From positions 35,535 through 99,534 of IMG/VR virus record IMGVR_UViG_3300020151_001109: a stretch of 64,000 nt of DNA. One strand, given 5' to 3'. The translations under genes and the position numbers were made by a program. Each line of letters starts with the position of its first letter. Position 1 is the stretch's first letter. Positions 41,718 to 63,914 of the stretch are shown in pieces. The notes under the pieces are model-generated. The model did not search any database, was not told the origin of the DNA, and saw only the letters and a program-made list of their open reading frames with translations. This stretch comes from a virus (taxonomy: Duplodnaviria > Caudoviricetes).

Positions 41718-41757
41718 GCCTAAGTTTGATTGGGCATACGTATCCGCCGCCGCCAAC

Positions 41758-41807
41758 ACAAACAATTCTTAACTTAAAACCCTTAATTTAAGTTAAGAAT
41801 TGTTTGT
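41758..41807. terminator. Perfect 21-bp inverted repeat at the convergence of the two transcription blocks
   Basis: ACAAACAATTCTTAACTTAAA / TTTAAGTTAAGAATTGTTTGT, 8-nt loop. Confidence 0.75.
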
Positions 41808-42080
41808 TTATTTAATGACATTCTTAAACTCATACTCCTCTTCTGAGCGTATACACTCAAGGCATACGACCTCTTCATCACCGTCTTCATCGGTAAATAC
41901 AAAGAAGGCTTCATCTATAAAGCTACAGTGATCACATATGTGAACTGTTGGATCCCTATCAAATATGTAACAGGCGTGGCATTGAACGCCATCTATATAC
42001 TCATCTGGATAGGTAAGATAATTACCGCAAATACAAAACCCAACGTATCCCGCAGGTAATTCAATTACTGGCTGGCTCAT
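41808..42080 (-). CDS. Cys-rich zinc-binding protein
   Basis: CICG, CHAC, CDHC, CLEC. Confidence 0.6.
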   Translation of the reverse strand: MSQPVIELPAGYVGFCICGNYLTYPDEYIDGVQCHACYIFDRDPTVHICDHCSFIDEAFFVFTDEDGDEEVVCLECIRSEEEYEFKNVIK

Positions 42081-42288
42081 GGCTTTTTTCCTTTTCTTCT
42101 ATCTCCCATACTTCGCTACCCTCAAACTCTAGCGGAGACGGCAGTGTTGGGCAGGAGTCCAATAGCTCAGAGAACTTATTAAATCCCTGATCTTGGGCAT
42201 CCCACATATCATTTGATTCGATTTCTACATCGTAGTAAACAGATGCTTTACATCTAACTGTAAAGGTGGTCATCTTCTTGTTCTCCAT
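42061..42288 (-). CDS. Small acidic hypothetical protein
   Basis: Operon context. Confidence 0.5.
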   Translation of the reverse strand: MENKKMTTFTVRCKASVYYDVEIESNDMWDAQDQGFNKFSELLDSCPTLPSPLEFEGSEVWEIEEKEKSHEPASN

Positions 42289-42487
42289 TCTCTATGAGCT
42301 TCATAGGCTCACCTGTATCGTAGTTATCTACTGAATGTATCATTGTCCAGCCTTCGTTCTTTCTTAGATCGCCGTATTCCCCGGCGTCTATTCTGTCTTG
42401 TATCTCTTCTTGAAGCCCTATAGATGAAACATCTTCAAGCAACATAGAGTAGAACTCAACTTTTTTTACAATAACTTCAACGTTCAC
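42254..42487 (-). CDS. Small acidic hypothetical protein
   Basis: AAGGAG SD. Confidence 0.55.
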   Translation of the reverse strand: MNVEVIVKKVEFYSMLLEDVSSIGLQEEIQDRIDAGEYGDLRKNEGWTMIHSVDNYDTGEPMKLIENGEQEDDHLYS

Positions 42488-42488
42488 T

Positions 42489-42944
42489 TTATTCTCCTTT
42501 CTTCTTAACTGGGGTTAGGGACTTGCCATCTTCCCTGGGCCATAGATAAGGTAAGTCATCTGGCACAGGAAACTTGTAGTGGTTGCTGTCTTTTCTTTTT
42601 AGATTTGATCTGTGGCTTCGGTGAAATCCTCTTTTACCTAACCACCAAGGTCGTTGGAACCTATCGCTTGGTATTTCTTTTGCAAGTTCTTTTGCTTGCT
42701 GTAGACAAGTATCTTGATAACCTAATTTAGTCCACCGATAGCAGATGGCTCGTATATAAAAGTAAAGTTGTCCTTCATATCCGCGCCACATTACAGCAGC
42801 TGGGTGGTTTCTCCAACCTTGAGTCTTACCTAGGTTAGCTTTAAGTATCTGTAAAGCTTCTACTCGTTGTTTTCCAAGTCGTTTTACATCTAAGGCTTCT
42901 GCTGATTTATCGTAGTCTGAAAATGGTAGAAATGTATTAACCAT
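42489..42944 (-). CDS. Pyrimidine-dimer DNA glycosylase / endonuclease V-like (MSMEG_6728-like)
   Basis: TFLP..D...SA..LD.KRLGKQRVEALQIL, W.NHPA..MWRGY, FHRSHRSNL.RKD. Confidence 0.85.
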   Translation of the reverse strand: MVNTFLPFSDYDKSAEALDVKRLGKQRVEALQILKANLGKTQGWRNHPAAVMWRGYEGQLYFYIRAICYRWTKLGYQDTCLQQAKELAKEIPSDRFQRPWWLGKRGFHRSHRSNLKRKDSNHYKFPVPDDLPYLWPREDGKSLTPVKKKGE

Positions 42945-43053
42945 CTTTACTCCAACAATCTGGGCAAGAAGTTACCATACGGACTTGTTCTTCTTTGTGC
43001 GGTTCTTCGTAAGAATCTCCGGCACAGTTTAAACAGATAAACAATATGCTCAT
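42937..43053 (-). CDS. 38-aa zinc-ribbon microprotein (not in ORF track)
   Basis: CLNC...CPDC; AGGA SD. Confidence 0.5.
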   Translation of the reverse strand: MSILFICLNCAGDSYEEPHKEEQVRMVTSCPDCWSKDG

Positions 43054-43057
43054 GTTT

Positions 43058-43309
43058 TTATCCTATACTGATGCCTTCTTTTTTAGCATCGTAGCCGACT
43101 TCTTTTAGGTTTTTTCTGATCTCCAAGATAGTTCGTCTATCTTTAGTTCTGCCTGAAGATAAGATTACTTGTTGTTTAGTTTGATTATTAAATACACGAA
43201 CGTGACCACGTGTAGTTACAGTTACTGAGAGCCCTGATTTTTGTAGGGATCTTACTAGTTTTCTCATGTTTTTATCTTTAAGTGCAAGAGCTGCAAAGTA
43301 AAGTTGCAT
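43058..43309 (-). CDS. HicA-like dsRBD-fold protein
   Basis: LVRSLQKSG.....TRGHVRV ... IRKNLKEVG. Confidence 0.5.
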   Translation of the reverse strand: MQLYFAALALKDKNMRKLVRSLQKSGLSVTVTTRGHVRVFNNQTKQQVILSSGRTKDRRTILEIRKNLKEVGYDAKKEGISIG

Positions 43310-43377
43310 GGGTGGTTTCCTCCTTTCTTATGCTGTGATATAGTTATGACACTCTGAAGAGAGTATCTCTGTCGAGA

Positions 43378-43425
43378 GAAAAACAGCCCCGCAAGGTATT
43401 TTCTGGATACCTTGCGGGGTTGTTT
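43378..43425 (-). terminator. Intrinsic terminator (leftward)
   Basis: CCCCGCAAGGTAT / ATACCTTGCGGGG stem followed by TGTTTTT on the minus strand. Confidence 0.7.
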
Positions 43426-43436
43426 GTGTTGGTGTG

Positions 43437-43628
43437 CTACTCAGGGACTTCTTCACATTCGAGTACTTTTATGTACTCACCCGGGCGAAGATACTCATCA
43501 TTAAGCGCGGTACGTATGAATTGGTCATAGAACCATAAGTCCCAGTTATGCTCTGCAGCATAGGGTGGTTCTATACGTCCTTCGTATACGCATACTTCAA
43601 ACGTTAGTTGAAGCTTTACCATTGCCAT
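43437..43628 (-). CDS. Hypothetical protein
   Basis: GGGAG SD. Confidence 0.5.
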   Translation of the reverse strand: MAMVKLQLTFEVCVYEGRIEPPYAAEHNWDLWFYDQFIRTALNDEYLRPGEYIKVLECEEVPE

Positions 43629-43631
43629 AGA

Positions 43632-44315
43632 TTACTCCCTTTCGTTGTCATCACCCCCATCTGACAAACCCAACCATAGATCTTGGAATTTGCCGAGATG
43701 AAGACTAATTTCCCTGAAGCTGCTGTCGTATTGACCGCGATTTTTAATCTCGCCGTTCATTCCTATAGCCCAGCCGCAGGTATTTTCTGAAGGAGCTTCG
43801 ATATCGAAGCTATAATGAAACATGATCTTTGGAAAGTCAATGCTCATTTTGTGGTAGATTCCACTTGGTGGTTTAATACAGGTATCAAATTCGAACACAG
43901 CTATTTTTTCTGGCTTTAGGTCGGTTCTGATTTTAATAGGTAGTCCTTTAAGTACTGGTTCGGTTAGTACGTGAGTAGCTACCTTAACATTGATTGGTTC
44001 TTTCGGGCTAGTCCAGTGTTCCTGTTTAAAGGCATAAGCGTCAAGAGCTTTGTACTTTTCCAGGACACTGGGCTTTATATTCAGGGGATTGAATGTCTTT
44101 AGCTCGTCAGGTATTGGCTTAACTTTGTTAAAGCTTAACTCCTTTGAGCCATCAGATAGGTATTGTATTACCAAGTCGACGTCAGCTATTGAGCCGATCA
44201 TAACCAGTTGGTTTTTACAGTCATAGTCAGAATGCCTATCTAGTTCAATCTGACAGTGACGCCGTTGCTCCTCCTCGGTTTTGCGGAGTTCAGCTCTTTG
44301 TTCATCATTCATCTT
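43632..44315 (-). CDS. DUF1281/YubB-like ferredoxin-fold protein
   Basis: CKNQL, LSFNKVKPIPDEL, HW, FEFDT...PP, DFP. Confidence 0.5.
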   Translation of the reverse strand, partial: KMNDEQRAELRKTEEEQRRHCQIELDRHSDYDCKNQLVMIGSIADVDLVIQYLSDGSKELSFNKVKPIPDELKTFNPLNIKPSVLEKYKALDAYAFKQEHWTSPKEPINVKVATHVLTEPVLKGLPIKIRTDLKPEKIAVFEFDTCIKPPSGIYHKMSIDFPKIMFHYSFDIEAPSENTCGWAIGMNGEIKNRGQYDSSFREISLHLGKFQDLWLGLSDGGDDNERE

Positions 44316-44574
44316 CATAGCCCCTCTCGGCTTTGTGTTTTTGTATGATTGCGGTCTCATAGGATTTGATTCTTTCTGTAGACCAGGTTAGCATTTCCAT
44401 TAACTTACCCTCATCTTCGATGGAGTCAACTAGAAATGCATTCATTGCACAGATCTGTTCTAATGCCATAGCTTTGAACGGTGCAGGTATTTTTGAGATG
44501 TCATAGTCTAAGTTGACATCTGTTAAGCTTGACAATGAGAAGTCATCCTCATCGTCATCATCGTGGTCGTGCAT
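44305..44574 (-). CDS. Acidic hypothetical protein
   Basis: AAGGAGG SD. Confidence 0.55.
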   Translation of the reverse strand: MHDHDDDDEDDFSLSSLTDVNLDYDISKIPAPFKAMALEQICAMNAFLVDSIEDEGKLMEMLTWSTERIKSYETAIIQKHKAERGYEDE

Positions 44575-44583
44575 GTTGCCTCC

Positions 44584-45153
44584 TTAATCGATCTGTTGGA
44601 CGATATTGAATTGATCTTTAAAACTAGGGATTAAAGAAGGCAAGTCCGAATAGAACTTGGCATCTATAAACTCATCGTCTGACTGATCAAACAAAGATAT
44701 GTATTGACATATTCTTTGATAACGGCTTGGATTGACATTACCTTTATTATCACTAGATGACAAAAAGGCTTGCTTTACCGCTTCGTGGAGCTTGCGCTTG
44801 TTTGTGTTGGCTTCTGACTTTTTGTAGGGATAGCCTTCTACTCGATGTAAGTTAATTCTTACGTCTATAGTTGCATCTGGTCTAGCGTAGTCATAGTGAT
44901 AGTGATAGTCAAACTTTAAGGCACCATCTTTATGAGATTGAGTTAACTGGTTAAGCACTGCTTCCCAGTTTGCCTCCATCCACACTACAACATCTGTTCC
45001 GCTAACTACCCCTTCGTCTTGAACTTCAAGGTGTTTTACTTCTTTGTAGGCTTCTTCTAACCACACCTTGTTATCTCTTAGCTTTTCGAGTATATTAACT
45101 CGTCGAACTAAGAACGGAGATGCTTCTATCTTCTTGGTTGCTGATGCCATCAT
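44584..45153 (-). CDS. Hypothetical protein
   Basis: GAGGAGG SD. Confidence 0.6.
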   Translation of the reverse strand: MMASATKKIEASPFLVRRVNILEKLRDNKVWLEEAYKEVKHLEVQDEGVVSGTDVVVWMEANWEAVLNQLTQSHKDGALKFDYHYHYDYARPDATIDVRINLHRVEGYPYKKSEANTNKRKLHEAVKQAFLSSSDNKGNVNPSRYQRICQYISLFDQSDDEFIDAKFYSDLPSLIPSFKDQFNIVQQID

Positions 45154-45346
45154 CTACCTCCTCTATAGTTTTAGATGTATTGTTCAAGAACCATTCTGTT
45201 GGGCTACACGCTTGGTGTATATCAAAGACTAGTCCTCTCTCATTAAGCCAATCGCTTGCCTCCATAGAGAAGGCAAGCGCTTGGTCTTCAGTTTCAAACG
45301 GTCCAACGCATTCCTGCGTTAGGAGATCAAGAGCTATGTAACTCAT
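45095..45346 (-). CDS. Hypothetical protein
   Basis: VGPFETEDQA motif; GGGGAG SD. Confidence 0.5.
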   Translation of the reverse strand: MSYIALDLLTQECVGPFETEDQALAFSMEASDWLNERGLVFDIHQACSPTEWFLNNTSKTIEEVDDGISNQEDRSISVLSSTS

Positions 45347-45348
45347 GA

Positions 45349-45807
45349 TTACTCCCCATGCTTTTCTACTAGTTGCTCATACATGTCGAGATTTATAAGA
45401 GCAGCTGCTAAGCCGCCTTCAGCTACCTCTTTACGTGTGGGGTATTCGACTTCGCCATCTGACATCTCGCTCATCATTGTTGCTTTGCCGATTGCCATTA
45501 ACACTGGGTGTGCTTCGCGGAGTGACATACCGCGAGTCAACGCTTCCTTACAGCGATTACTATTACGGTATTCGCCATCGAAGTAGTATTGAGAAGCCGC
45601 GATAGCATACAGACCTACCGCTAAGTTTGGGTTGGAAGAGTTTGTAACAACATCATCCGCCAACTCAAGCCACCAGTCAGGGTCATACTTTGTGAAGTTA
45701 GCATAGTCACAGAAGACTGGTTTGTAATCAATCAATACAATCATCTGCGCTATGTCTGCTTTCGCAGCATCTTTGCCTAACGCCTTGTCTAGAATTTCTC
45801 TAAACAT
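45349..45807 (-). CDS. Hypothetical protein
   Basis: GGGAGG SD. Confidence 0.6.
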   Translation of the reverse strand: MFREILDKALGKDAAKADIAQMIVLIDYKPVFCDYANFTKYDPDWWLELADDVVTNSSNPNLAVGLYAIAASQYYFDGEYRNSNRCKEALTRGMSLREAHPVLMAIGKATMMSEMSDGEVEYPTRKEVAEGGLAAALINLDMYEQLVEKHGE

Positions 45808-45820
45808 TGCTTTACCTCCC

Positions 45821-47794
45821 TTAGTTACCTAATTTGCGCTTTTTAATAGCGCCTACAACCACCGCTTTGGCAAGTTGTAGTAGATCTTTACCACCATTTA
45901 CACGGGAAAACAGTTCAGCACCATGGCTGAAGTCAGTCTTATCTCTAAGTGTTTGAGCGCTCTGATTTCTAGCAACAGACTCTAGATAGGATTGCTCATC
46001 CATTATTAGCACCATGACTGTAAGCACACCGCGTTTTGCTAGTCGCTCAATAATTGGGTTGTTTTGCTTACTGTCAAACTGACCGTCAGTAATCAAGAAC
46101 AACATTTTATTTGGGCGAGTAGACATCATAAAAGTCTTTTCTGATAGGATCAAGGACTGGTATGGATCTGTGCCGCCTTGACCATGAATAAACTTGTATG
46201 CTGTTCGGGCTGCTTTATCCTGCTTTCTATATGCAATTTCGTTCTTATCATCAAAGGCATAGACTGTTACAGAACAGTCAATGCTTTCCAAAGCACGCTT
46301 GACAGTCCAGCATGCTACTGATGCTTTTCTGTCGTTAGCTCCTGAGCTCATTGAAGATGATCGGTCGATAAGAATGACTGCCTCAATATTGGTTGAGTCA
46401 TCTCCTGTAGACCACGAATCGAATGCCTTATCAACATCACATCCACGCATAACGCGTGGCATGTTGAGTTTGCCAGCAACAGTTTCTCTTTCCCAGGCGG
46501 GCTCAGAGTCATCCTTTAGCTTTCGCAGTTCATTTGCAAACTTACGATAGTCAAGTAATGCTCTAGCAGGCACTGGGGCACTGGAGAATTTGCCTAGTTC
46601 AGAGTTATCGTCCCAGTTTTCATCACCATGGACAATAATGTTCTGTTTGCGTTTGACATCCTTAATAACATCCTTGCGGTTGTATATAGTCTGAATGTCT
46701 TGCTCCAAAAGGTTGTTTAGATCTTTAGGTAAACCGCCTTGACTCTTAACGTGAGAGTTACCCCAGGTATTGAGTTGAGTTGGCTTTTCCTTGTTCTCTT
46801 CGCGCTTTTGTAGCATTTCTTCTTGCGTCATAGATATTTCGGTATGTGTTTGTGTTGGGGGAGGAGTTCCATTGTTGGCACCCTCACCCGGTTGAGACTC
46901 ACCTTGTTGTGGTATAGGTTGAGACTCACCTGGAAAACAACCACCTTGTTGTGGCTGTGATCCTTGCGTTGTTTCTACCGGCTCCTTAGGTATGTAGAAT
47001 GACTCAGGCTTACCCATCGTAGATGCAATTCGTCCATCACGTTCTTGAGCTTTGCCTGGTTCAGGTCTACCTTTTTTGATTGGCGAACGAGCATCACAAC
47101 TTCCAAGACCACATTGAGGTGGTATATCCATTTGTGAAATAATCAACTCATGAAACTCTTTGACTAGTTTTTCTGCTCGTTTGTAGTCCCTAGGGAATGC
47201 TAAGCACCGATACTCATTCGTAATGCGTTGAATATCAGGGATTAGCTCGGGCTTGTAGAACAAGTCCCGAAATGCTTCGCGTATTTTTACGTTGATATGC
47301 CTACGACCAGCGATAAGCGGATAGTTAGTAAACGCAGCTTCGGGTGTAGTCTGCAACCAGATTAAGGCAGCAGATTGAAGATACGGACTAACACTGGGAT
47401 ATCTAGCACAGAGTAATGACTCGATGCGTTGATCTTCCAGTATGTTAAAGGATGTATAGTAACCTTGCTCTATTACATACTTCAGCAATGTAGTGCCTTC
47501 GCGGGGCGTATAGAAATGATGAGCTAGCTCGTGGTAATTTAACCCCGATACTTTGGTCAGCATCTCTAGTGATATCTCGCCGATGTGCTTTTGATTGATG
47601 TAGATATTCTCACCATCAGACCAGGTTACTGCTGGGCCATCCTCTACAACGTGAACGTTGATTGGATCGCCTGTCAGGATTCGGTCAGCACCTTCGTATA
47701 CTCGAGACAATGCAGATAATTGTAACGACCTCATCTGCATAGCCTCTTCACGAGCATTACCGTTTGTTAATATATTTTTATCTATATACGGCAT
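45821..47794 (-). CDS. vWA-domain protein with N-terminal HExxH domain (CobT-like partner of AAA+)
   Basis: YHELAHH...FNILEDQRIE; MIDAS IDRSSSM, GGT, LITDG. Confidence 0.85.
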   Translation of the reverse strand: MPYIDKNILTNGNAREEAMQMRSLQLSALSRVYEGADRILTGDPINVHVVEDGPAVTWSDGENIYINQKHIGEISLEMLTKVSGLNYHELAHHFYTPREGTTLLKYVIEQGYYTSFNILEDQRIESLLCARYPSVSPYLQSAALIWLQTTPEAAFTNYPLIAGRRHINVKIREAFRDLFYKPELIPDIQRITNEYRCLAFPRDYKRAEKLVKEFHELIISQMDIPPQCGLGSCDARSPIKKGRPEPGKAQERDGRIASTMGKPESFYIPKEPVETTQGSQPQQGGCFPGESQPIPQQGESQPGEGANNGTPPPTQTHTEISMTQEEMLQKREENKEKPTQLNTWGNSHVKSQGGLPKDLNNLLEQDIQTIYNRKDVIKDVKRKQNIIVHGDENWDDNSELGKFSSAPVPARALLDYRKFANELRKLKDDSEPAWERETVAGKLNMPRVMRGCDVDKAFDSWSTGDDSTNIEAVILIDRSSSMSSGANDRKASVACWTVKRALESIDCSVTVYAFDDKNEIAYRKQDKAARTAYKFIHGQGGTDPYQSLILSEKTFMMSTRPNKMLFLITDGQFDSKQNNPIIERLAKRGVLTVMVLIMDEQSYLESVARNQSAQTLRDKTDFSHGAELFSRVNGGKDLLQLAKAVVVGAIKKRKLGN

Positions 47795-47808
47795 GTTGTT
47801 TACCTACT

Positions 47809-49233
47809 CTAGTTCGTGTTCTTTGATTGTAGCCACGCATCAACTTCTTCGCTGATACTTTCTACACCATCAGTTGATTCACTTGGGGTAACTTCATTTA
47901 GATTGAAGTCTTCCTTGATGTTGAAATCATGAGTCATAAGAACTAATGCAACCTTTTCTTGCTCTTCCTTATCGAAGTGGGCAACAAAGTTAGCAATAGC
48001 GAACTCATAATTAAACGGAATGATTTGCTCTAGCTCCATCAACATATTAGTTGAGATAGGAGTTTCGAACTCACCTTTAGCTGCTTCAGTGCGTAGTTGC
48101 TTAGCAATTACGAGAAGAGCTTTTGACTTGATTAGCTTGGCTTCTACTTCATCGTCATAGTCCCAAGGGATTTGAACGCTGAAACGGTTACGCATCGCAA
48201 AGTTGAGAGGCGTAGTGCCGATATACTCTGGATTCATTGTGGCAAAGATAGTCAGGTCTGGATGAGCCTGGATAGTCTCGCCGTGGTGATCCAATAGAAT
48301 CAAGCAACGTCGTCCGTCAAGGAGTGAATAGAGAATTGTGTAGATTTTTGGAGAGATGAAGTTCAACTCATCGAGAATTAGAACACCACCATTACGAACT
48401 ACGTCAGTAATTGGACCGTCAATCCACTCAAAGCCACCGCTACCATCCGGTACATATTTACCGATTAGTTGGCTTGGCTCGAGAGCAGCATTGCCAGACA
48501 CAGCTGCAAGACGCAGTTGATTTTTAGCAGCCCACGCAACAATAGATGTTGTCTTACCAGGACCGGTAGGGCCGTAGATAAGAACTTCTCGCTTTGAGGC
48601 TCGTGCATAATCGAATACGGTAAAGTCAAGAACATTACCCGTTAGTTTGCGGTTAACATAGTTGTTTGCGTATTCAATTGGGGGAATACTTGCCAGGGCG
48701 ATCTTGAGATTGCCAGATGAATTAACCATCTCTTCACTCAAGTCTTCCTCGACAGCAGGCGCTGCCTCGGATGTTTGTGTTGGCTGTGTAATGAATGGCG
48801 TCTCGATAGAAGAACCATCTCTTTGGCGTCGTAAATCAGTAACATAGTCTTCCAATGTTGGATCACATACTGCAACTCTATCAATGAGAGCACTGATTCG
48901 TTGCTGCACTGAACCAAACTCTTCATCCTTTGGAGCCTTGTCATAAGCAGCCATTGCCTTGGTAGACAATACTGGAGACCAACCGTTTTCACGGAGAGCC
49001 TCTTCGTCTGCTGAAGTGACGTGGATACCAACAGGCTGAACAGTTAGGAATTCATTAGGAGACATAGCTGTATACAGTTCACTAACTGTTGTTTCGTCCC
49101 AGCGCTTGCCGGTAACTCCGTCAGTTAGTCTTGTATATACACGAGTAGATCCATCGTATGGGACAACAAGTATTTGACGCTTGCTCTCACTCATAGATGG
49201 TTCATAGGTCTCTACGAACATCGCTATATTCAT
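47809..49233 (-). CDS. MoxR/CbbQ/CobS-type AAA+ ATPase
   Basis: GPTGPGKT, WIDGP, LILDE, ATMNPEY.GT..LN.A..NRF. Confidence 0.9.
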   Translation of the reverse strand: MNIAMFVETYEPSMSESKRQILVVPYDGSTRVYTRLTDGVTGKRWDETTVSELYTAMSPNEFLTVQPVGIHVTSADEEALRENGWSPVLSTKAMAAYDKAPKDEEFGSVQQRISALIDRVAVCDPTLEDYVTDLRRQRDGSSIETPFITQPTQTSEAAPAVEEDLSEEMVNSSGNLKIALASIPPIEYANNYVNRKLTGNVLDFTVFDYARASKREVLIYGPTGPGKTTSIVAWAAKNQLRLAAVSGNAALEPSQLIGKYVPDGSGGFEWIDGPITDVVRNGGVLILDELNFISPKIYTILYSLLDGRRCLILLDHHGETIQAHPDLTIFATMNPEYIGTTPLNFAMRNRFSVQIPWDYDDEVEAKLIKSKALLVIAKQLRTEAAKGEFETPISTNMLMELEQIIPFNYEFAIANFVAHFDKEEQEKVALVLMTHDFNIKEDFNLNEVTPSESTDGVESISEEVDAWLQSKNTN

Positions 49234-49294
49234 TTGCCTTTTCCCTTTCAGTTAATACTGCACACGATGTGCAGCTCACCGTTTTACCGGCTAG

Positions 49295-49337: not shown

Positions 49338-49346
49338 TGAAAGGAG

Positions 49347-50233: not shown

Positions 50234-50242
50234 GATTCCTCC

Positions 50243-50554
50243 TTATCCTGTTTTTCTTCGGATTTCTAACCTTTGTTCTTCGGTTAAACCACCCCAGATA
50301 CCATAATCTTGATGGGTATCAAGAGCAAATTGCCTACACTTTTCCATTACAGGACACGCATTGCAATAAGAGACAGCCAACTCTATACGTCGAGTTTTTT
50401 CTGGCCCTCGTTCTAGTTCCTCATAGAAAAATACCTCCGAGTTTTTTAAGTCATTGCATAAGCCTTTTTCTTGCCACGCCCAGTTGTCATAAATGGGATT
50501 TGGCATATGCTTACTAAATTGACTAGGAGTATAAGCTTCTTTCTTTCTTGGCAT
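50243..50554 (-). CDS. whiB: WhiB family transcription factor (copy 3, WhiB3-like)
   Basis: W.WQEKGLC..VFF..ERG..CNACPV..CRQFAL...YGIWGGLTEEQR. Confidence 0.93.
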   Translation of the reverse strand: MPRKKEAYTPSQFSKHMPNPIYDNWAWQEKGLCNDLKNSEVFFYEELERGPEKTRRIELAVSYCNACPVMEKCRQFALDTHQDYGIWGGLTEEQRLEIRRKTG

Positions 50555-50695
50555 TGAACCTCCTTGGACATGAGTAATGAGCCGTTTAGCCTTGTCATGC
50601 TCAGGACAGGAAGCAGATATACCCCGATGCTTACGGGACGTGTTTTACCTTAGGTCTCGTCAGACCAAAGACACTCCTCCTTCTAGAGTGCGCCG

Positions 50696-50769
50696 TGCGC
50701 TGTGTAGGACTTGAACCTACGACGACCGAATTATGAGTTCGGGGCTCTAACCAACTGAGCTAACAGCGC
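50696..50769 (-). tRNA. tRNA with CAT anticodon (Ile2-lysidine or elongator Met); CCA not encoded
   Basis: GCGCTGT TAGCTCAGTTGGTTAGAGC, CCGAA-CTCATAA-TTCGG, GTAGG-TTCAAGT-CCTAC, ACAGCGC-A. Confidence 0.92.
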
Positions 50770-50799
50770 GGGCCAGCGAAATGTTTGTGTTGGCCGGAG

Positions 50800-51340: not shown

Positions 51341-51350
51341 GAATTACTCC

Positions 51351-51857
51351 TTACTTAGCTCGTTTTGCTGTGCGCCACATGTGGGCATTTTCTGATTTAA
51401 CACCTATTGCAGTGAGTCCCATCTCAACTAATACATCGTCAATGTGGAACTTTAACTTCTCTAAGTCTTTAACGTCAAGCCTGACTAGGCAAGATGTGTC
51501 AAAGTCTTGGACAACGAGGAAGGCTGTGTTGTCTGTTTTACACCCTAATATGTATCCTGATTCTTTTCTGCATAGATCGCTTGATATGGTGTATTGACCT
51601 TCGGCAAGCAACTTATGTCGTGTAAAGGCATCTAGTAACGGAGTGTAACTGTCTTTGGAGCGGGCTTTGTTTGTGTTGGAGTTGGCTAACTTAATAGCCT
51701 CATCTTCGTGCTTAGTAACCGGATCTGATTCGACTTCTGGCACGGCATCTAACTTGGCTTTAGAGTCTTTGATTACGTCAGGGTTTGAATTGATATCTTC
51801 TAACTCTTCTGCAATTAACTCGTTTACTTTGCGGGGTGTTGTTTTCTTTTTAACCAC
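51351..51857 (-). CDS. Hypothetical protein
   Basis: 168-aa ORF in the leftward block. Confidence 0.55.
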   Translation of the reverse strand: MVKKKTTPRKVNELIAEELEDINSNPDVIKDSKAKLDAVPEVESDPVTKHEDEAIKLANSNTNKARSKDSYTPLLDAFTRHKLLAEGQYTISSDLCRKESGYILGCKTDNTAFLVVQDFDTSCLVRLDVKDLEKLKFHIDDVLVEMGLTAIGVKSENAHMWRTAKRAK

Positions 51858-53068: not shown

Positions 53069-53112
53069 TGCATTTCCCTTCTGGCTGGCTGGTTGTTTGT
53101 GTTGGGGAAGCA

Positions 53113-53575: not shown

Positions 53576-53844
53576 ATCTTTTTCGGGGGAAATTTAGGGT
53601 GAGCAGTTTGTATTCCTCATACTCAGGAGGCGTCCCAAATAGCAGAAGGCCGGATCCGTGGTCTGGAACCCGCTGCGTTGGGCAACTATGGTGCGGGGGG
53701 ATGTTTGTGTTGGCTAGCCTTGTGATAATGCGTCGTCAATGCCCATACGATGAGCAAGACATATCAGGCAGGCGTAGGTGTCGTGGGTAGCGGGAACGCG
53801 GGTAAGATGTAGCCTAATAGATGCTACAAGTTCTTTATGTGTTG

Positions 53845-54429: not shown

Positions 54430-54467
54430 AAAAAAAAGGGGAGACCGTAATTACACAGTCTCCCCTT
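54430..54467 (-). terminator. Intrinsic terminator (leftward)
   Basis: GGGGAGAC..GTCTCCCC stem plus 8-T tract on the minus strand. Confidence 0.8.
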
Positions 54468-54468
54468 C

Positions 54469-55099
54469 AGACATACTAAGTGTGTAATGAAACACGGGCT
54501 GGAAGGTTGAAGCAGGTTATTTACACTTACCTGACGAGTGTTGATAACCAATTGAACCAGTGATAACTATTGTTAGAGTCAGGGCCATCGAATTGGCTAG
54601 TAGCAATAGAAACGAACGCACTACCCTATATGTGTTATTACACCCCTTAGTATGCCTTCCACTCTCAGATAGAGAGTGAGAGATACATAGTCTGTCTTGT
54701 AGCGAGAACGCCCAACTAACCTACGGGACTAGCCCTAGCCTATGTATCTTCCACCAACTATCTAATAGATACAGAGAGATACATAGTCTCTCCCAGATGC
54801 GGGTATTCCAAAGGCACTAGCGTTTTAGTAAGAACTAAGGAGGCTAGTGAGTCTGCAACCTTACAGAAATGAATCCGTTATAGGTTCGTTCCAACACCTT
54901 GAATAGCACCGACTGAGTAAGCCGCTTCACAGCATAGGTCTCAGAGGCTATGTATCTTCCTGCAACTACCTGATAACAAGCAGTCGAACCCCTCCCAAGC
55001 CTGGTGTTACAACTTGGGAGTGGTTTGCCTTCCCTGATAGTGGCTAAACAGCCATAACCAGACAGGGGTTTTATCCCCTGCCTGATTAGAGTGGTTTAG
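54469..55099. ncRNA. Tandem array of five stem-closed elements (54469-54657, 54667-54763, 54767-54971, ~54986-55026, 55044-55099)
   Basis: No credible ORF; abutting inverted repeats; exact direct repeats GAGAGATACATAGTCT (54678, 54774) and CTATGTATCTTCC (54740, 54948). Confidence 0.6.
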
Positions 55100-55117
55100 A
55101 CTCCTGCCGTGAGAGAA

Positions 55118-55684
55118 TTACTCAGAGAATGAACCCTTGAGTAATAGATAGATAGGGAACAAGAGGTTCTTAGCCTCTTGATCCATCTCTGCACCTAGTG
55201 AACTCTCCAACGCTGCTTTGAACGCTGGAGTAGTTGAAGCAAGTGATGCCGCTGCTGCTTCTTTAGCAGCCTTGAGAGCAGCCGCCTTCTCAGCGACAGC
55301 CGAAGCCTTGGCAGACAAGATGTCTACCGCGTCTGGGTTGCCGATGAGGGGCTTGATGTCTGTCCAGTCTACCTTTGTGAAGGCAGCAGCAATCTCAGCG
55401 TCTACGCCTGTGGCAATAAGAGCGCCGAGATAGATTGGCCGTTGGTAACCATTGGTGAGGAACTTCTTATCAACAGACTCTGTGTCTGTCTTATCACCAC
55501 GATTGGTCATAGCATCGACGACCAACTGACGAGTTGAAGCAAGTAATTCATCGACGCTACCGCCGTTGATAATAAAGTCCGCTACATTGCGGCGAACTTC
55601 TGGGGCAGCGAGGTTGGCATTACCTGCAACGAAAACACTATTTGACACGAGGTCAAGGGTGTTCGTCATTGTTTGTGTTGACAT
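55118..55684 (-). CDS. Hypothetical 188-aa protein, first gene of the leftward block
   Basis: TAGGTAG SD-like; biased codon usage; Ala-rich helical C-terminus. Confidence 0.7.
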   Translation of the reverse strand: MSTQTMTNTLDLVSNSVFVAGNANLAAPEVRRNVADFIINGGSVDELLASTRQLVVDAMTNRGDKTDTESVDKKFLTNGYQRPIYLGALIATGVDAEIAAAFTKVDWTDIKPLIGNPDAVDILSAKASAVAEKAAALKAAKEAAAASLASTTPAFKAALESSLGAEMDQEAKNLLFPIYLLLKGSFSE

Positions 55685-56763: not shown

Positions 56764-56834
56764 GTACAAAAAGGCCCCCAAAAAAGCCCGCGTTTGAACG
56801 ACTATATCTCTGCAAATCTGGGAGCATTCGTTAT

Positions 56835-57077
56835 ATGGAACTACGTGATAGTCAAATGGATCGTCGTAGGAGAAGTGCCGGCATGCTATGGGTCGGTGGA
56901 GTTTGGATCCCCACGTATTCTTTCTGGGGTGGCGGTGGATATCTAACGACTGCCCAATCAAATAATAATTCTAACTCAGGCAATACCGACAATTCAGAAG
57001 GAGACTCTAGTGCCCCAACTACAGGAGACGCCGCAGCTGGTGGAGATGCTTCCGCAGGAGCTACCGCCTCGTTGTGA
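56835..57077 (+). CDS. Low-complexity hypothetical protein
   Basis: Possible leaderless start; Gly/Asn/Ala-rich tail. Confidence 0.45.
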   Translation: MELRDSQMDRRRRSAGMLWVGGVWIPTYSFWGGGGYLTTAQSNNNSNSGNTDNSEGDSSAPTTGDAAAGGDASAGATASL

Positions 57078-57210
57078 CGGCTGCTCTGCCAGGGCGCTAA
57101 TTAAGTGCGATCTGCCTTTTGGCCCTCTTTATTTCTGCCAACACCACTACAATAAGCACGCCCTTGCGCTTACAGGCCAAGGTGGAGTTGCTAAACTTCT
57201 TACGTATTAA
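57010..57210 (+). CDS. Small actinobacterial-type Zn-binding protein
   Basis: RCDGCSARA......G.L.FCQHH..KH...L; AAGGAG SD. Confidence 0.6.
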   Translation: MPQLQETPQLVEMLPQELPPRCDGCSARALIKCDLPFGPLYFCQHHYNKHALALTGQGGVAKLLTY

Positions 57211-57234
57211 TACCGAAAGTTAGGATGTCTTTAC

Positions 57235-57930
57235 GTGCCAATAGGAAAAGGCGGCTGGACAGTTGAAGCCGGATCAAACTCAGGTAATGTTCTTGGCGGT
57301 TTAGGCCGAATGGCGAGAAATTTAAGTCGCGCAAAGCAAAATATTGAGGTATTTAATTATCAACAAGATCGTAGAGACGAAAGCACCGTAAAACGTTACG
57401 CAGCTGAGACGGCAGCTAAAGCTATGGATCGTCAACTAGAATTTGATTTAGCAGGTAAACATATCATGAGTCACGGAAGTGATTTTGTAACCGACCCATC
57501 TACAGGTAAAAGAAAAAGAGTTACCCGTAAAAATGTTAGGGCAGGCAACTACACTACCGGAGAAGCTGATGGCGCCAAAACTTATGGCGAAACACTTATT
57601 GAAAACACTAAACTTAAACAACAAATTACTGCAGACAAGCTTGAAGCAGCAAGGCTTAGGGCAGAAGAGCGTAAAAACTCAGGTGGTAAGACAAAGAAAA
57701 CTGCAGCTAAGAAAACTTCTGCTGGTAAGCCTCGTGTAAAGAAAGTAACTGCAACTAAAGAAACAACCGCTGATATAGCTGTTGATTCTACAGGTGCCGC
57801 TACTCGCATAGGCAAAGATGGAAAGATGCCACCTAAAAGATCTGGAAACGTAAAAAAGATAACCACCGGTGGGGGACTAACAGAAGTTAGAAACTCTAAT
57901 GTTGAAACTGGAAACAGGGGTAAGAAATAA
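57235..57930 (+). CDS. Basic hypothetical protein
   Basis: K/T/A-rich C-terminus. Confidence 0.6.
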   Translation: MPIGKGGWTVEAGSNSGNVLGGLGRMARNLSRAKQNIEVFNYQQDRRDESTVKRYAAETAAKAMDRQLEFDLAGKHIMSHGSDFVTDPSTGKRKRVTRKNVRAGNYTTGEADGAKTYGETLIENTKLKQQITADKLEAARLRAEERKNSGGKTKKTAAKKTSAGKPRVKKVTATKETTADIAVDSTGAATRIGKDGKMPPKRSGNVKKITTGGGLTEVRNSNVETGNRGKK

Positions 57931-59666: not shown

Positions 59667-59934
59667 AAAACGTCCACCAGTTAGTGATCTAGCTAAAAAG
59701 ACCACCAATCTTGGTGACGTTAAATGGAATAAGGCTGACCAGACTCATTCCTGGACTTGTGACAACTGCGGTGAGACATTAAAGGCTGCTCCTGACAAAT
59801 ACAATAAACGTCTATCTTTAAGTCAATTCTCTATGGAGAATAACACAAAGGTTATTTGGGGCAAGGCAATGGACCACGTTCGACGTAACTGTGCTCCAGA
59901 ACCTAAACCGGCATACCGGAAGGATCTAGACTAG
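59647..59934 (+). CDS. Zinc-finger-like hypothetical protein
   Basis: CDNC...HVRRNC. Confidence 0.55.
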   Translation: MAARSRKKRPPVSDLAKKTTNLGDVKWNKADQTHSWTCDNCGETLKAAPDKYNKRLSLSQFSMENNTKVIWGKAMDHVRRNCAPEPKPAYRKDLD

Positions 59935-60557
59935 TGACGACTGAAGGACGTAAAGATGCCTTTAAAAACTCTTTATCTGGCATACACGTAACCGCTGCAG
60001 TAGAGCCCGGGTATTTTGATAAATACGACGATCCCATTAAAAAACTTGGGCAGCTTCAAATCCATGCTAGAAATATTACAACAGACCTTCTTTCTAGATC
60101 TGGGGCATCTCCTGAGCAGTTAAAAGGAGTAAACTCTGTAGTACTTCATTCAAAAGATGCTTTACGTCCTGGAACTAAAGGTGCTTACGTTAAAAATGAT
60201 TCTTCTATCCACGTAAACATTGCCAGTCCAAAAGCATCGTCTGCAATTACTCATGAGCTTGGGCACCATGTAAATGAACACTCAACCCCAGAGGAGCTCC
60301 AAAGCAAGGGGCAAAGAAAAAAAGCCATATTAACTAACGTTGGCGGCTCTGAGGCAGAAGCAGACCATTTTTCAAGCCCAAACGGCGCAGCTAAAAACCT
60401 GTACTCCCATGCCGTAACCCACCATTTAACAGGTTCCTGTAAAAAATCCCACGGGGACTATTCTCATAGAATGCTTAAAGCAATAGGTAAAGGATATTCA
60501 GATAGAATGAAGACCATAAACCCAGGAATTCATAAACAATTGACCGGAGGTAAATAA
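59934..60557 (+). CDS. HExxH zincin-like metallopeptidase
   Basis: GAY....IHVN.......ITHELGHH ... SEAEAD. Confidence 0.65.
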   Translation: MTTEGRKDAFKNSLSGIHVTAAVEPGYFDKYDDPIKKLGQLQIHARNITTDLLSRSGASPEQLKGVNSVVLHSKDALRPGTKGAYVKNDSSIHVNIASPKASSAITHELGHHVNEHSTPEELQSKGQRKKAILTNVGGSEAEADHFSSPNGAAKNLYSHAVTHHLTGSCKKSHGDYSHRMLKAIGKGYSDRMKTINPGIHKQLTGGK

Positions 60558-60835
60558 TGCCTACAACTAAAAAGAAATCCGCAGCTTGGACTCGCAAAGA
60601 GGGCCAAAATGCTAATGGCGGATTAAATGCTAAAGGTCGAGCATCCTATAAGCGTGAAACTGGCGGAACATTAAAACCTCCTGTAAAAAAAGAAGAAGCA
60701 GCTAAATCTAAGAAATCTGCTGCTCGTCGTAAATCTTACTGTGCCAGATCTGCTGGGCAAGCTAAGATGTTTCCTAAAGCAGCTAAAGATCCTAATAGTC
60801 GCTTAAATAAAGCACGCAGAGCTTGGGATTGCTAA
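60557..60835 (+). CDS. Conserved basic phage protein (DUF6321-like)
   Basis: AWTRKEG.N..GGLN.KGR.SY ... RRKSYCAR ... DPNSRLNKARRAWDC. Confidence 0.65.
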   Translation: MPTTKKKSAAWTRKEGQNANGGLNAKGRASYKRETGGTLKPPVKKEEAAKSKKSAARRKSYCARSAGQAKMFPKAAKDPNSRLNKARRAWDC

Positions 60836-61236
60836 TGCCTTTTGAATATCGAGTTAAAAAGTTACTTAACGTAGTTGATGGAGATACTATTGACGTTGAG
60901 ATTGACTTAGGTTTTAGTATATTTTATACCTCCCGAGTTCGCCTTGCCGGAATAGACACCCCAGAATCTCGTACAAAAGACCTTGAAGAAAAAAAACTAG
61001 GACTTGAGGTTAAAGAGTATTTAAAACATCGGATTGAAAACGCAAAAAACCTCATCATTCAAACAGAAAAACCAGATAGCTCTGAAAAGTATGGGCGTAT
61101 CCTCGGAACCTTGTTCTCAGAAGGGGTAAGCCTAAACCAAGAACTTGTTGATAAAGGATATGCTTGGGGTTACGATGGCGGCACTAAAGTAAAAGATTTT
61201 GAAAGTTTAAAGACTAAAAGAGGGCTGGTTATTTAA
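60835..61236 (+). CDS. Thermonuclease (SNase-like)
   Basis: VVDGDTIDV.IDLGF, RVRLAGIDTPESRT, KYGRILG. Confidence 0.9.
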   Translation: MPFEYRVKKLLNVVDGDTIDVEIDLGFSIFYTSRVRLAGIDTPESRTKDLEEKKLGLEVKEYLKHRIENAKNLIIQTEKPDSSEKYGRILGTLFSEGVSLNQELVDKGYAWGYDGGTKVKDFESLKTKRGLVI

Positions 61237-62139
61237 TGCCTAAAATTAAAGTCGGCGGTGCTGACCACGTAGTCAAGAAAAATAAAAAAGGTGAGATAAT
61301 TGTGGATCATGCTGCCAGCGCTAAAGCCGGCAAGTACGATAAGATCAATCTTACTAAGAAAGCTGGGGCTAAGACAGTCAAGGAAGGCGTAAAAGCCACC
61401 AAAGACTGGCATAAGAAGAATCCCCACAAGAAAGGCAAATAATGGCTACCAAGAAGAAAGCTTTCTGGGACAAGAAAGATCCGAAACCAGAATCTACAAG
61501 TAAACTAACCAAATCGCAGAAAGCGTCTGCAAAGGCAAAAGCTAAGGCCGCTGGTCGTCCTTACCCAAACCTTGTAGATAATGCTGCTGCTTCGAGAAAG
61601 AAGAAGAAATAATATGTGTAAAAAATGTGGGAAGCCAGGATGTAAGGGTACTTGCAAGAAGACTGTAAAGAAGACTGCAAAGAAGATGTCTCCAAAGCAG
61701 AAGAAGCTTGATGTAGATAAAGACGGCAAGCTAGAAAGATCTGACTTCGCTGCTCTACGAAAGAAGAAGAAGTAATGTGCGCTACCTGTGGCTGTGGTAA
61801 GCCAAAAGATAAGCATGGCATGAAGACAATACAAGCTGCAAACAAGAAGTTTGCTAAAAAAGCGTCTACAAAGGCTCCGGCTAAGAAGACCACTATGAAC
61901 AGAAAAAAGGGCATGTAATGGCTGCTATGGGATTTATGTCAGGAAAGTACACCGAGTCTAAAGACAAGAAGAAAGACGCTGCAATGCTTAAGAAGGCGGC
62001 TTTTGGTAAAGAAGACAAGAAGGCCTTTGAAAAGGCTGACAAGGCTCATGGCAAGAAGAAGAAGCCTAAGACTATGGCTGAAGATAAGAAGAAAGACGCC
62101 AAGATCATTAAGAAGATTAAGAAGGATAAAAAGAAGTAA
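61236..62139 (+). CDS. Run of five coupled Lys-rich microproteins (61236-61442, 61442-61612, 61614-61775, 61775-61918, 61918-62139)
   Basis: TAATG overlaps; motifs GRPYPNLVDN, CKKCGKPGC + LDVDKDGK, CATCGC. Confidence 0.6.
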
Positions 62140-62432
62140 TGTCTGAAGTTAAGAAGTTTGGTCCGTATAAGGGGTCCGCTGCTAATGGCGGACGCCCTAT
62201 ATACGTCTACAAGAAAAAGGTAGGCGGTAAGTGGGTCACGACTTCTAAGAACAAAGCTAGAGCTGACTACGAGGCAAAAAACGGTAAACTTAAGTCTAAG
62301 GACACTACGGTGGACCATAAAGACAATAACCACAATAATGACTCTAAGGGCAACCTAAGGGCCATCTCTCGTAGTAAGAACACAGCCAAAGAGAACAAGC
62401 GCCGAGCCGGCAAGAAAGAGAACGAGAAATGA
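62139..62432 (+). CDS. Minimal HNH endonuclease
   Basis: VDHKDNNHNNDSKGNLRAISRSKN. Confidence 0.75.
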   Translation: MSEVKKFGPYKGSAANGGRPIYVYKKKVGGKWVTTSKNKARADYEAKNGKLKSKDTTVDHKDNNHNNDSKGNLRAISRSKNTAKENKRRAGKKENEK

Positions 62433-62686
62433 AAACCAACCCACCGTCAAACGTAAGAAACCGCAAGCTTGAAGCCCAGGAGGCTGATGAGTACGGTTTT
62501 CCTGCTAATGGTGATTGGAGTGCTCTTGAGGCCCAGGCACAGCAAGATATGGCTAAGAACAAAGAAGACATTGATAAAGGCCGTACTGGTGGGGGCGACC
62601 ACCTAACTCGCGCTTGGGACAACCCTGGTCCGGAAACACCTAGTTCCTCTGACCTATATCCGACTGGCAAGAAGTCACGTCGCTAG
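62429..62686 (+). CDS. Hypothetical protein
   Basis: ATGA coupling. Confidence 0.55.
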   Translation: MKTNPPSNVRNRKLEAQEADEYGFPANGDWSALEAQAQQDMAKNKEDIDKGRTGGGDHLTRAWDNPGPETPSSSDLYPTGKKSRR

Positions 62687-62775
62687 TTAAGCAGTACGTA
62701 TTTTAAAAAAATCGGGATACTAAGACCTACGCCCCGATCAGGCGAAATTACACCTCTCTAGAGAAAAAGGACATA

Positions 62776-63864
62776 ATGTCAAGTTATAGCTCACCCGCGG
62801 CTGTTGGTTCCGCCAACGCCACCGGAGCAGAATCCATTGAAATTGGAAACACTGCCGCAACAACTAACAATAACGGCAATCTTACTGACTCAGCAGGAAA
62901 CCTACAGACAGATTTCGTCTGGGGTAACTTCCCCGCTCAACCTAATGACGAGCGTGCTGATGGAACACCAACAGCTACAGAAACATACGGAGCCTCACAA
63001 AATGGGCAATGGACATCTAAGTCAACTATCGCATCTGCTCGCCTAAACGCATCACTTGGAAATCACTCAGATATTGAAGCTGAGTGGGCAAACTTCCCTT
63101 CATATGTAGAAGCAGCAGGTAACTATATGGTTACAGCAGCTTCAGGTAACGGAACAACAGTTACTTACACATCACAAAATAATCTTTCAGCTGGCGACGT
63201 TGTAAACATCACAGGTCTTACAGCTTCAGCTTACAACCTTTCATCAGCAACTGTTGCTACAGCCAATAAGCTCAAGTTCACAGTAACTAATGCAGCAAGC
63301 GCTGGAGAAATTACAGGACAGTGGTATGGCAAGGTACAGCTAGCAACTGCTGCATCAGCAGCTGATGGCGCAGGAATTGGTTACATCAACGTACCTAACG
63401 TTGTTGGTAACACTACAGCAGTAGCCCTTGACACACTTAAGGATGCTGGTTACGAAGCAGCTAATATCACTACAGCTACAGCAGCTACAAACTTGCGTAC
63501 AGATATTACTCGTTTCAACGCAACAAGTACAACAGCAGCAACAATTTACGCAACTAGCGCAAATACCAACTACCCAGTTGGTACATATGTCACAGTTGTT
63601 GCAGGAACACCAGCTGCCTCATCTCCAGTCAACCCTCCAGCTTACGCAGTTGGTACCTTTAGAGTTACCGCAGTTGCAGCTGGAGCAATTACAGTTTCTG
63701 GTACAGGATTTACAGTTGCAGATACCACTGGTATCAACTCAACTCTAAACCTTGCTGGTCTTGCTGGAACACTCAAGTCTCAATCAGTTGCAGCTGGAAC
63801 AGCTTCAGTTGCCTCAACAGCTACAATCACAATTACACCTTACGCAGCAGCAACAACTTCATAA
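62776..63864 (+). CDS. Ala/Thr-rich structural protein with beta-barrel repeats and a PASTA-like segment
   Basis: DFVWGNFP.QPND.R; NVPNVVG.TTAVALDTLKDAG; strongly biased codons; own terminator. Confidence 0.6.
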   Translation: MSSYSSPAAVGSANATGAESIEIGNTAATTNNNGNLTDSAGNLQTDFVWGNFPAQPNDERADGTPTATETYGASQNGQWTSKSTIASARLNASLGNHSDIEAEWANFPSYVEAAGNYMVTAASGNGTTVTYTSQNNLSAGDVVNITGLTASAYNLSSATVATANKLKFTVTNAASAGEITGQWYGKVQLATAASAADGAGIGYINVPNVVGNTTAVALDTLKDAGYEAANITTATAATNLRTDITRFNATSTTAATIYATSANTNYPVGTYVTVVAGTPAASSPVNPPAYAVGTFRVTAVAAGAITVSGTGFTVADTTGINSTLNLAGLAGTLKSQSVAAGTASVASTATITITPYAAATTS

Positions 63865-63880
63865 TCCTCTCAACACAAAC

Positions 63881-63914
63881 AAAAACCCCCCGGCTAATAA
63901 CCGGGGGGTTTTTT
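63881..63914 (+). terminator. Intrinsic terminator
   Basis: AAAAACCCCCCGG / CCGGGGGGTTTTTT. Confidence 0.85.

Follow-up and report, generated by a model that had tools for sequence, protein, structure and literature searches.

An invariant, transcription-oriented 12-base word in the leftward gene block of a phage family: a possible stoperator-like site for a ribbon-helix-helix protein

The 64,000 nt of DNA analysed here (the window) form the last 64 kb of the 99,534-bp IMG/VR virus record IMGVR_UViG_3300020151_001109 (genome G000 in the following), which belongs to a phage family represented by at least 575 IMG/VR contigs carrying its terminase. Nearly all genes of this phage point rightward, except for a 14-kb leftward block at 41.8-55.9 kb of the window that comprises small open reading frames (ORFs), a WhiB gene, the genes for an AAA protein and its von Willebrand factor type A (vWA) partner, tRNA-Met, a gene for a pyrimidine-dimer glycosylase and several long noncoding stretches. 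Nine copies of a 12-base word, YCAACACAAACA, lie in this block. In the phage family the word is found as exact repeats in one direction, ~1.4 kb apart, across this single gene block, and it is the subject of the present study.

Of the exact 11-base word CAACACAAACA, the window contains 12 copies and the genome 14 (10 copies on the minus strand and 4 on the plus strand). Dinucleotide-preserving shuffles of the window contained 0.03 copies on average and never more than one. In the original prediction, an earlier note made from the letters of this DNA, the random expectation for an 11-mer in 128 kb at equal base use had been put at about 0.03. CAACACAAACA is the top over-represented 9-12-mer genome-wide. 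The scan of the full genome for exact and one-mismatch copies, which that note had proposed, revealed in addition to the 14 exact copies three one-mismatch variants, all deviating at the last base only. The 12 exact copies in the window start at 8773 (-), 41754 (+), 43421, 44799, 46847, 48772, 50782, 51668, 53094, 53702, 55670 (all -) and 63871 (+). The copies and positions listed in the original prediction were thus correct, apart from the reading of the 8773 copy, which is antisense to its own gene. The sites, together with a one-mismatch copy, are as follows (G001 is a relative that is 91% identical to G000):

55670..55681, minus strand: first array copy (TCAACACAAACA), flanked by two in-frame ATGs where the 188-aa gene starts, ~200 nt from the divergent region
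53702..53713, minus strand: array copy 1 nt past a TAG stop, followed by a structured noncoding stretch of ~200 nt without a credible ORF
53094..53105, minus strand: array copy 8 nt past a TAA stop and ~22 nt ahead of an ATG with a Shine-Dalgarno (SD) sequence
51668..51679, minus strand: array copy within a 168-aa ORF, frame 2
50782..50793, minus strand: array copy 7 nt past a TAA stop and 12 nt 5' of tRNA-Met (50695-50769)
48772..48783, minus strand: array copy encoding PTQT in the CobS-like ORF (47809-49233), in the linker between the N-terminal domain and the AAA domain
46847..46858, minus strand: array copy in the middle of the vWA ORF (45821-47794), read in frame 1 or frame 2 according to lineage
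44799..44810, minus strand: array copy within a 189-aa ORF, frame 2
43421..43432, minus strand: last array copy, 5 nt past a TAG stop and abutting a strong terminator hairpin (43387-43419)
41753..41764, plus strand: inverted copy at the end of the rightward ribonucleotide reductase (RNR) operon; its 3' half forms the base of a bidirectional terminator (41759-41806)
63870..63881, plus strand: copy 6 nt past the stop of the 362-aa gene, followed by AAAA and a bidirectional terminator (63885-63908)
8773..8783, minus strand: antisense copy inside a rightward 229-aa ORF, common to G001 only
1999..2009, minus strand: one-mismatch copy (CAACACAAACT) within the baseplate wedge gene and antisense to it; at the homologous site of G001 the copy is exact

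Several details of placement had been pointed out in the original prediction and proved accurate. Three copies do touch terminators, the hairpins being located at 41759-41806, 43387-43419 and 63885-63908; the copy described as lying just 5' of the tRNA (50782) is 12 nt away from tRNA-Met (50695-50769); the copy said to follow the first ATG of the block (55670) has an ATG on both sides; and the nine co-oriented array copies are indeed spaced 0.6-2.0 kb apart. The 55670 copy lies ~200 nt into the leftward block and adjoins its first long ORF, and no promoter could be placed there with confidence. The inverted copy at 41753..41764 is conserved in relatives, and the copy after the 362-aa gene is kept in the related genomes G001, G002 and G008 and deleted in G012, where the flanks of this terminator align and the motif has been cleanly lost. 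Outside the window, the copies within structural genes may be incidental; for example, the copy at genome position 32441 falls on a conserved NPNTN peptide, and at this place the relatives carry one-mismatch versions of the word.

Some further features of these regions were observed. Past the 188-aa gene there are ~650 nt without a credible ORF (54430-55117, minus strand), which end in a very strong terminator (54435-54468); this stretch has no homology between G000 and G001, and Rfam finds nothing in it. At either end of the record (genome 1-190 and window 63871-64000, i.e. genome 99405-99534) there is a copy of a terminator and of the 3' end of a leftward gene, with ~85% similarity between the two, although the sequences upstream of them differ, and the motif is present ahead of the right-hand terminator copy only. 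They could be two paralogous copies, or the assembly could have wrapped onto a strain variant. Apart from the motif and the collagen-like repeats, the most frequently repeated 10-mer is (G)AAGTTACCCCA, with seven occurrences in both orientations (window 2965, 46756, 47884, 51017 and 62920; genome 18017 and 18158), in which no pattern was seen.

The base at position -1 of the word is always C or T, and that at +12 is mostly A/T. An information profile of 32 non-redundant sites contains only this Y at -1, the 11 invariant bases and A/T at +12, with no conserved flanking position within 70 nt on either side; therefore, the motif unit is a stand-alone YCAACACAAACA(W) of ~12-13 nt. The word is made up of A and C only, so it can form neither self-pairing nor wobble pairs and is intrinsically unstructured. 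Rfam finds no known RNA family besides tRNA, and a full-text literature search for the word or its complement gave only primers and unrelated matches.

The properties of the sites were measured on 125 sites in 16 records, 101 of these sites being in non-redundant genomes. An automatic rule called 115 of the 125 sites sense with respect to the local genes; seven of the ten remaining sites lie inside arrays, where the rule was misled by spurious ORFs on the opposite strand, and only three are truly antisense (two of them homologous to each other). Sixty-three sites lie outside long open frames, and 31 of these are within 8 nt past the end of an ORF of at least 40 codons. Such post-stop copies have a start codon 0-65 nt downstream, often with an intervening SD sequence, which can start as near as 3 nt past the motif. 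Furthermore, 12 of the 63 copies are directly followed by a hairpin of -19 kcal/mol or stronger, versus 8 of 1500 random 45-mers. In G000, the motif precedes three of roughly nine strong terminators, and at none of the strong terminators does a copy lie downstream of the U-tract. The tRNA-Met of the block has a copy 12, 11 and 7 nt upstream in G000, G001 and G006, respectively. The spacing is quasi-regular: 59 intervals range from 608 to 2667 nt (mean 1370) with a coefficient of variation of 0.34 versus 0.87 for random placement, and none of 5000 simulations reached the observed range (note that the genomes are related and the intervals not fully independent).

The 38 copies within long open frames are read in frame 1 (22 copies), frame 2 (15 copies) or frame 0 (one copy). 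The original prediction had proposed that selection acts on nucleotides because the copies fall in different frames, and this view has held: two ORF reading frames are in use, and since the same place in the vWA gene is read in frame 1 or 2 depending on the lineage, selection acts on the nucleotides and not on the encoded peptide. In the CobS/MoxR-like AAA protein (window 47809-49233, minus strand), the motif clade has an extra N-terminal domain of ~150 aa, which is joined by a linker of variable length; PTQT or STQT is the sole constant element of this linker, and the motif is present there in 10 of 10 aligned motif-bearing genomes. As the homologue in G009, a motif-less genome, is a 289-aa ORF without the N-terminal domain, the linker site looks like a former gene boundary that is now read through. 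The motif is a real, selected, transcription-polar signal that is clustered in the leftward block. Its copies are clustered, polar and conserved in relatives, rather than spread evenly and bidirectionally over the genome.

More than 30 IMG/VR records of relatives were fetched or scanned. The identical word in the same architecture was found in more than 20 of the related records, all belonging to one clade. The shared layout comprises 6-11 co-oriented copies, 0.6-2.7 kb apart, in the leftward WhiB/CobS-like/vWA block, a single inverted copy where the RNR operon ends in a convergent terminator and, usually, one copy ahead of the terminator following the 362-aa gene. Most complete relatives possess 7-15 copies per genome, and the G012 type only three (in the CobS linker, in one other ORF and at the RNR terminator). 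The core genes of the motif clade are 70-95% identical. No other part of the genome varies as much as the leftward block, in which many genes have been replaced by others or retain just 25-60% identity, with the motif unchanged among them. In a sister clade with the same genome plan there are no copies (G009 and ten more records of 54-95 kb, two of them complete). The nearest cultured relatives are Streptomyces phages of the BRock type, with a major capsid identity of 72-74% (megablast gave no match to a cultured phage); BRock has neither the motif nor the putative reader discussed below. No substitute dispersed motif was found in G009, G012 or BRock, their top k-mers being collagen-like repeats or tRNA arms.

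A host-wide motif of the Chi, KOPS or uptake-sequence type was considered and rejected, as there is no enrichment in 401 Actinomycetia genomes. This sample takes in many genomes of 1.2-1.5 Mb, the size expected of freshwater hosts. Any copy of the 12-mer was present in 33 of the 401 genomes (some of 1.3-1.5 Mb among them), nearly always a single one (e.g., in G287 and G031), and the inspected single copies in small actinobacterial genomes are in coding DNA and not near rRNA. The only cluster (G246:C1:2854728-2899637) consists of seven co-oriented copies in a 5.4-Mb chromosome with 69% GC, each inside the same repeat of >120 nt; this repeat probably represents modules of one large gene, and the copies are unrelated to the phage signal. 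Because the motif is missing in the sister clade, in BRock and, as a repeated element, in the 401 genomes, the motif system is a clade-specific, dispensable phage innovation rather than a host-wide signal or a core promoter class. A comparison of gene presence and absence with the number of motifs revealed no gene that separates motif-rich genomes from the three-copy G012; the 83-aa ORF (45095-45346) was tried as a correlate of motif count and failed in a tblastn comparison with more genomes.

Besides the AAA protein of the MoxR/CobS type and its vWA partner, the phage encodes three WhiB-like proteins (window 10862-11200 and 21608-21925, plus strand; 50243-50554, minus strand), of which that of the leftward block evolves fastest (26-84% identity among relatives). 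Further genes encode a class II-type RNR, a TGT/DpdA-like enzyme, PolA, DnaB, a DnaG-like primase, RecA, SpoVS, a baseplate wedge protein and collagen-like fibres. The presence of WhiB genes suggests that the host is an actinobacterium, and the family probably infects uncultured freshwater Actinobacteria. The SpoVS homologue (window 24064-24336, plus strand; Pfam E 5e-27) is among the most conserved small proteins of the family, with 88-99% identity among relatives and 80% in the sister clade. The gene for the TGT/DpdA-like queuine tRNA-ribosyltransferase homologue (window 37966-39450, plus strand) adjoins that of RNR and may be a sign of 7-deazaguanine modification of the phage DNA. No tyrosine integrase, serine recombinase or other resolvase was detected in a six-frame search of the 99.5-kb genome, which extends to the full genome what had been said before of the window, and the phage looks lytic.

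Eleven core ORFs are common to all motif-bearing genomes and missing from both G009 and BRock. Only one of them has a recognisable nucleic-acid-binding fold:

15156..15299, plus strand: candidate reader, an Arc-like ribbon-helix-helix (RHH) protein of 47 aa, in the replication module

The original prediction had stated that no repressor is visible in the window. This was not quite right, inasmuch as ORF 15156-15299, which was already on its list of candidates, codes for an Arc-like RHH repressor: it matches PHROG 6506 (Arc-like repressor) with E 1e-13 and, weakly, the Pfam RHH families TacA1 and NikA (E 0.07 for NikA). Its best look-alike in the PDB is the omega repressor, in a match that spans the whole RHH domain and is not significant (E 0.3). 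In each of the eight motif-bearing genomes that were fetched, the RHH gene follows that of an SNF2-like helicase; the sister clade, as seen at 80 helicase loci, has no RHH gene in the syntenic position, and the next gene directly follows that of the helicase. Across the family, the protein has an invariant N-terminal arm and beta-strand (MPNxPKTPTRTIRV) and variable helices; a partial re-check of this invariance agrees, although it is biased by the search patterns used. In RHH proteins, arm and beta-strand are the part that reads DNA. Four more complete RHH-positive genomes contain 8-13 motif copies each. For the other clade-specific proteins, no identity could be obtained from Pfam, PHROG, PDB, Atlas and one AlphaFold model (147 aa, helical, pLDDT 67). 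We regard the RHH protein as the best candidate for the motif reader; clade-level co-occurrence and the invariant reading head make it a lead, not proof.

Our best interpretation, held with modest confidence, is that the motif is a polar DNA site, similar to a stoperator, to which the RHH protein would bind in a lytic phage. YCAACACAAACA would then act in cis as a punctuation site that is polar with respect to transcription, having arisen in one clade of ~100-kb lytic freshwater actinophages, and would serve as a duplex-DNA operator for the clade-specific 47-aa Arc-like RHH protein. This protein, made with the replication genes, would occupy sites approximately every 1.4 kb along the leftward accessory (probably early) block. 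Once bound, it would be an orientation-dependent barrier for RNA polymerase that shuts down or insulates the leftward block, and at convergent junctions it would reinforce termination. Its role would be temporal control in the lytic cycle and not prophage silencing. We infer the binding of RHH to the motif, the earliness of the block and the transcription block alike.

Stoperators are best known from L5, a temperate mycobacteriophage of cluster A, in which 13-bp asymmetric sites are bound by the helix-turn-helix repressor gp71 and serve to silence the prophage. The geometric match to L5 is close: in both cases a short asymmetric site (13 bp in L5, 12 here) is repeated many times (14 copies in the present genome), is oriented with transcription, lies mostly in short intergenic gaps near stop and start codons and sometimes within genes, and is conserved among related actinobacterial phages. 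Whereas the L5 prophage is silenced by an immunity repressor of the helix-turn-helix type, here there is no integrase, and the sole repressor-like gene is that for the 47-aa Arc-like RHH candidate. Moreover, one of the L5 sites is a true operator at the early promoter, and none of the sites here was seen at a promoter. The present sites are concentrated in one block at quasi-regular intervals of 1.4 kb, show essentially no variation and frequently adjoin terminator hairpins. The facts on L5 stoperators reportedly go back to work of Brown et al. in 1997. The L5 analogy drawn in the original prediction thus holds for the geometry (an asymmetric, transcription-oriented site of ~12 bp, mostly in short intergenic gaps) and has gained a candidate reader, but the lack of an integrase and the apparently lytic lifestyle count against it, as does the fact that no copy was seen to overlap a promoter. 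By analogy, the motif is most like a stoperator array, minus the defining prophage silencing by an immunity repressor and with a different protein fold.

The candidate also belongs, as a PHROG Arc-like repressor, to the fold family of the omega repressor of pSM19035, Arc and MetJ. Its strand TRTIRV resembles KTVRVR of omega, with Thr and Arg at the base-reading positions. The omega repressor needs at least two adjacent 7-bp heptads (WATCACW) at promoters. In contrast, the sites described here are single 12-bp units that are 0.6-2.7 kb apart and not at recognisable promoters, and the PDB match is, as mentioned, not significant.

The stoperator-like interpretation has its strengths in a geometry close to that of L5 and in a concrete candidate protein. 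It nevertheless remains tentative, as a number of observations weigh against it. Genomes of the G012 type have only three copies and yet an intact RHH protein. No copy is found at a recognisable promoter, and none adjoins the RHH gene. Copies lie 1-8 nt past stop codons, rightward operon ends included; a polymerase halted upstream of a bound protein would therefore miss the stop codons, and the mRNAs would be truncated. The non-ORF copies that stand directly ahead of a strong hairpin (12 of 63) are not expected either, because a roadblock needs no hairpin. The near-absolute exactness over 11 bases is stricter than in most operator sets, and in the absence of an integrase or resolvase the known biological role of stoperators is inapplicable. 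Finally, the link between RHH and motif amounts to essentially one evolutionary gain (judged from two outgroups), and ten other ORFs share the same distribution.

An RNA-level signal, i.e. a single-stranded platform of A and C only that is read in the transcript by a protein, is as credible as the stoperator-like interpretation, and so equally tentative. It might be cut by a phage endoribonuclease that splits the polycistronic RNA every ~1.4 kb and takes off the 3' hairpins protecting it (in principle as T4 RegB), be covered by a protective or translation-enhancing binder that defines transcript ends (in principle as chloroplast PPR10, a pentatricopeptide-repeat (PPR) protein), or be recognised by the KH domains of host NusA, which would modulate pausing and termination. 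Nearly all copies are in mRNA sense, none in G000 lies past the U-tract of a strong terminator, and the copies mark boundaries of RNA units, standing ahead of starts with SD sequences, of a structured noncoding stretch, of terminator hairpins and, by 7-12 nt in two diverged lineages, of tRNA-Met. The word can form no self-pairing or wobble pairs, and copies within ORFs occur where two units seem fused, as judged by the CobS homologue of G009 without the N-terminal domain. The likeness to the RegB and PPR10 systems consists in a sense-strand, intergenic signal in a (probably early) block, dispensable and clade-limited, beside ribosome-binding sites and 3' hairpins; however, RegB reads four bases (GGAG), and PPR proteins are large helical-repeat proteins, none of which was found in the phage. 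In fact, none of the clade-specific proteins had a recognisable RNase or RNA-binding domain, half of the 41754 motif is buried in a terminator stem, and exact 11-base specificity is unusual among RNA-binding proteins. The original prediction had listed RNA-binding sites as an alternative; this now appears about as likely as the stoperator-like interpretation, with no RNA-binding protein or RNase recognised for it. A weak lead towards NusA is that the rrn leader of small actinobacterial genomes carries GAGAACUCAACAGCGUG, which has YCAACA in common with the motif and lies in what we take to be the NusA-binding boxC region of mycobacteria; the overlap is just 6-7 bases, though, and the motif itself is absent from those leaders. 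We also observed that the rrn leaders L175-L178 of four actinobacterial genomes of 1.3-1.4 Mb share CCGTACCTTGAGAACTCAACAGCGTGCCATAAGTC ~230 nt before the 16S gene, in which YCAACA corresponds to the first half of the motif; this is probably an antitermination (boxC-like) region. The motif as a mimic of the rrn leader or a complement of 16S rRNA was rejected, since only YCAACA is in common with the leader and no complementary site exists. Antisense or small-RNA pairing was likewise rejected, with 1-2 antisense copies per genome and, in G002 and G008, none in a real gene.

Site- and strand-specific nicking, as in the virion DNA of T5, phiKMV and tf, is an unlikely explanation, in which the nick would always be in the non-template strand. 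A handful to a dozen exact, strand-specific and non-essential sites per genome is common to both cases, and all-or-none exactness is typical of nucleases. The motif system is dispensable, being missing in the sister clade; the nicks of T5 are also dispensable. The polarity would be explained by avoidance of template-strand nicks, which would block transcription, and RHH proteins act as accessory factors of nicking relaxases (note the weak Pfam match to NikA, E 0.07). However, no nickase, HNH protein or relaxase was recognised among the clade-specific genes, the orientation of the sites flips with gene direction, and there is no obvious reason for nick sites to cluster in one block of 10-14 kb, to be regularly spaced or to adjoin hairpins. 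Still less is to be said for a mark of recombination or cassette boundaries in the hypervariable block, or for a polar replication or translocation signal (a Ter-like fork barrier, a priming or an entry site). The motif does persist in what is by far the most variable block of the genome, and the array facing an inverted copy resembles a fork trap. Eleven bases are too short for ordinary homologous recombination, though, and no recombinase was found; primase and helicase are shared with the motif-less clade, and the other 85 kb of G000 hold just five copies (four on the plus strand and one antisense). Recombination breakpoints at the motif were considered and rejected as inconsistent: one homology breakpoint lies 4 nt from a copy in G001 and 141 nt from it in G000. 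The least likely explanation is that a modified host RNA polymerase uses the motif as a promoter or initiator element, in which case the copies would form an array of internal promoters pointing in one direction, as with the class II promoters of T7 or the late promoters of T4. In its favour, the copies of the array are exact, evenly spaced and of one orientation, and copies lie closely upstream of start codons with SD sequences and of a tRNA. However, neither a T7-type RNA polymerase (PF00940; a weak negative, as PF00940 matched 0 of 14 control genomes) nor a sigma70-family protein (PF04542) was found in six frames of the genome, and Pfam and PHROG scans of large ORFs revealed no phage polymerase. 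There is no second element at a fixed distance, and with SD sequences from 3 nt past the motif, initiation would have to fall within the motif itself, which is not known of bacterial sigma-type promoters. At convergent junctions, transcription started from copies that immediately precede a bidirectional terminator would run into antisense DNA, and the sister clade with the same genome plan does without a substitute motif.

There is a substantial chance, though well below even, that the word is no repressor site at all and instead a new kind of transcript or genome punctuation, either an exact 12-nt single-strand signal (RNA or non-template DNA) that is read at every unit boundary by an unrecognised clade-specific protein setting RNA ends, termination or decay throughout the accessory block, or a transcription-oriented array of nick sites.

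The family is abundant in lake metagenomes. An invariant, polar, regularly spaced 12-mer together with a concrete candidate reader provides a directly testable handle on the regulation of these phages, and the motif is a simple marker for the clade and its hypervariable accessory block in metagenomes. Binding of the RHH protein to the motif, if real, would mean that control of the stoperator type is not restricted to temperate mycobacteriophages and also occurs in lytic phages, with another protein fold; otherwise, the word would represent a new class of punctuation signal.

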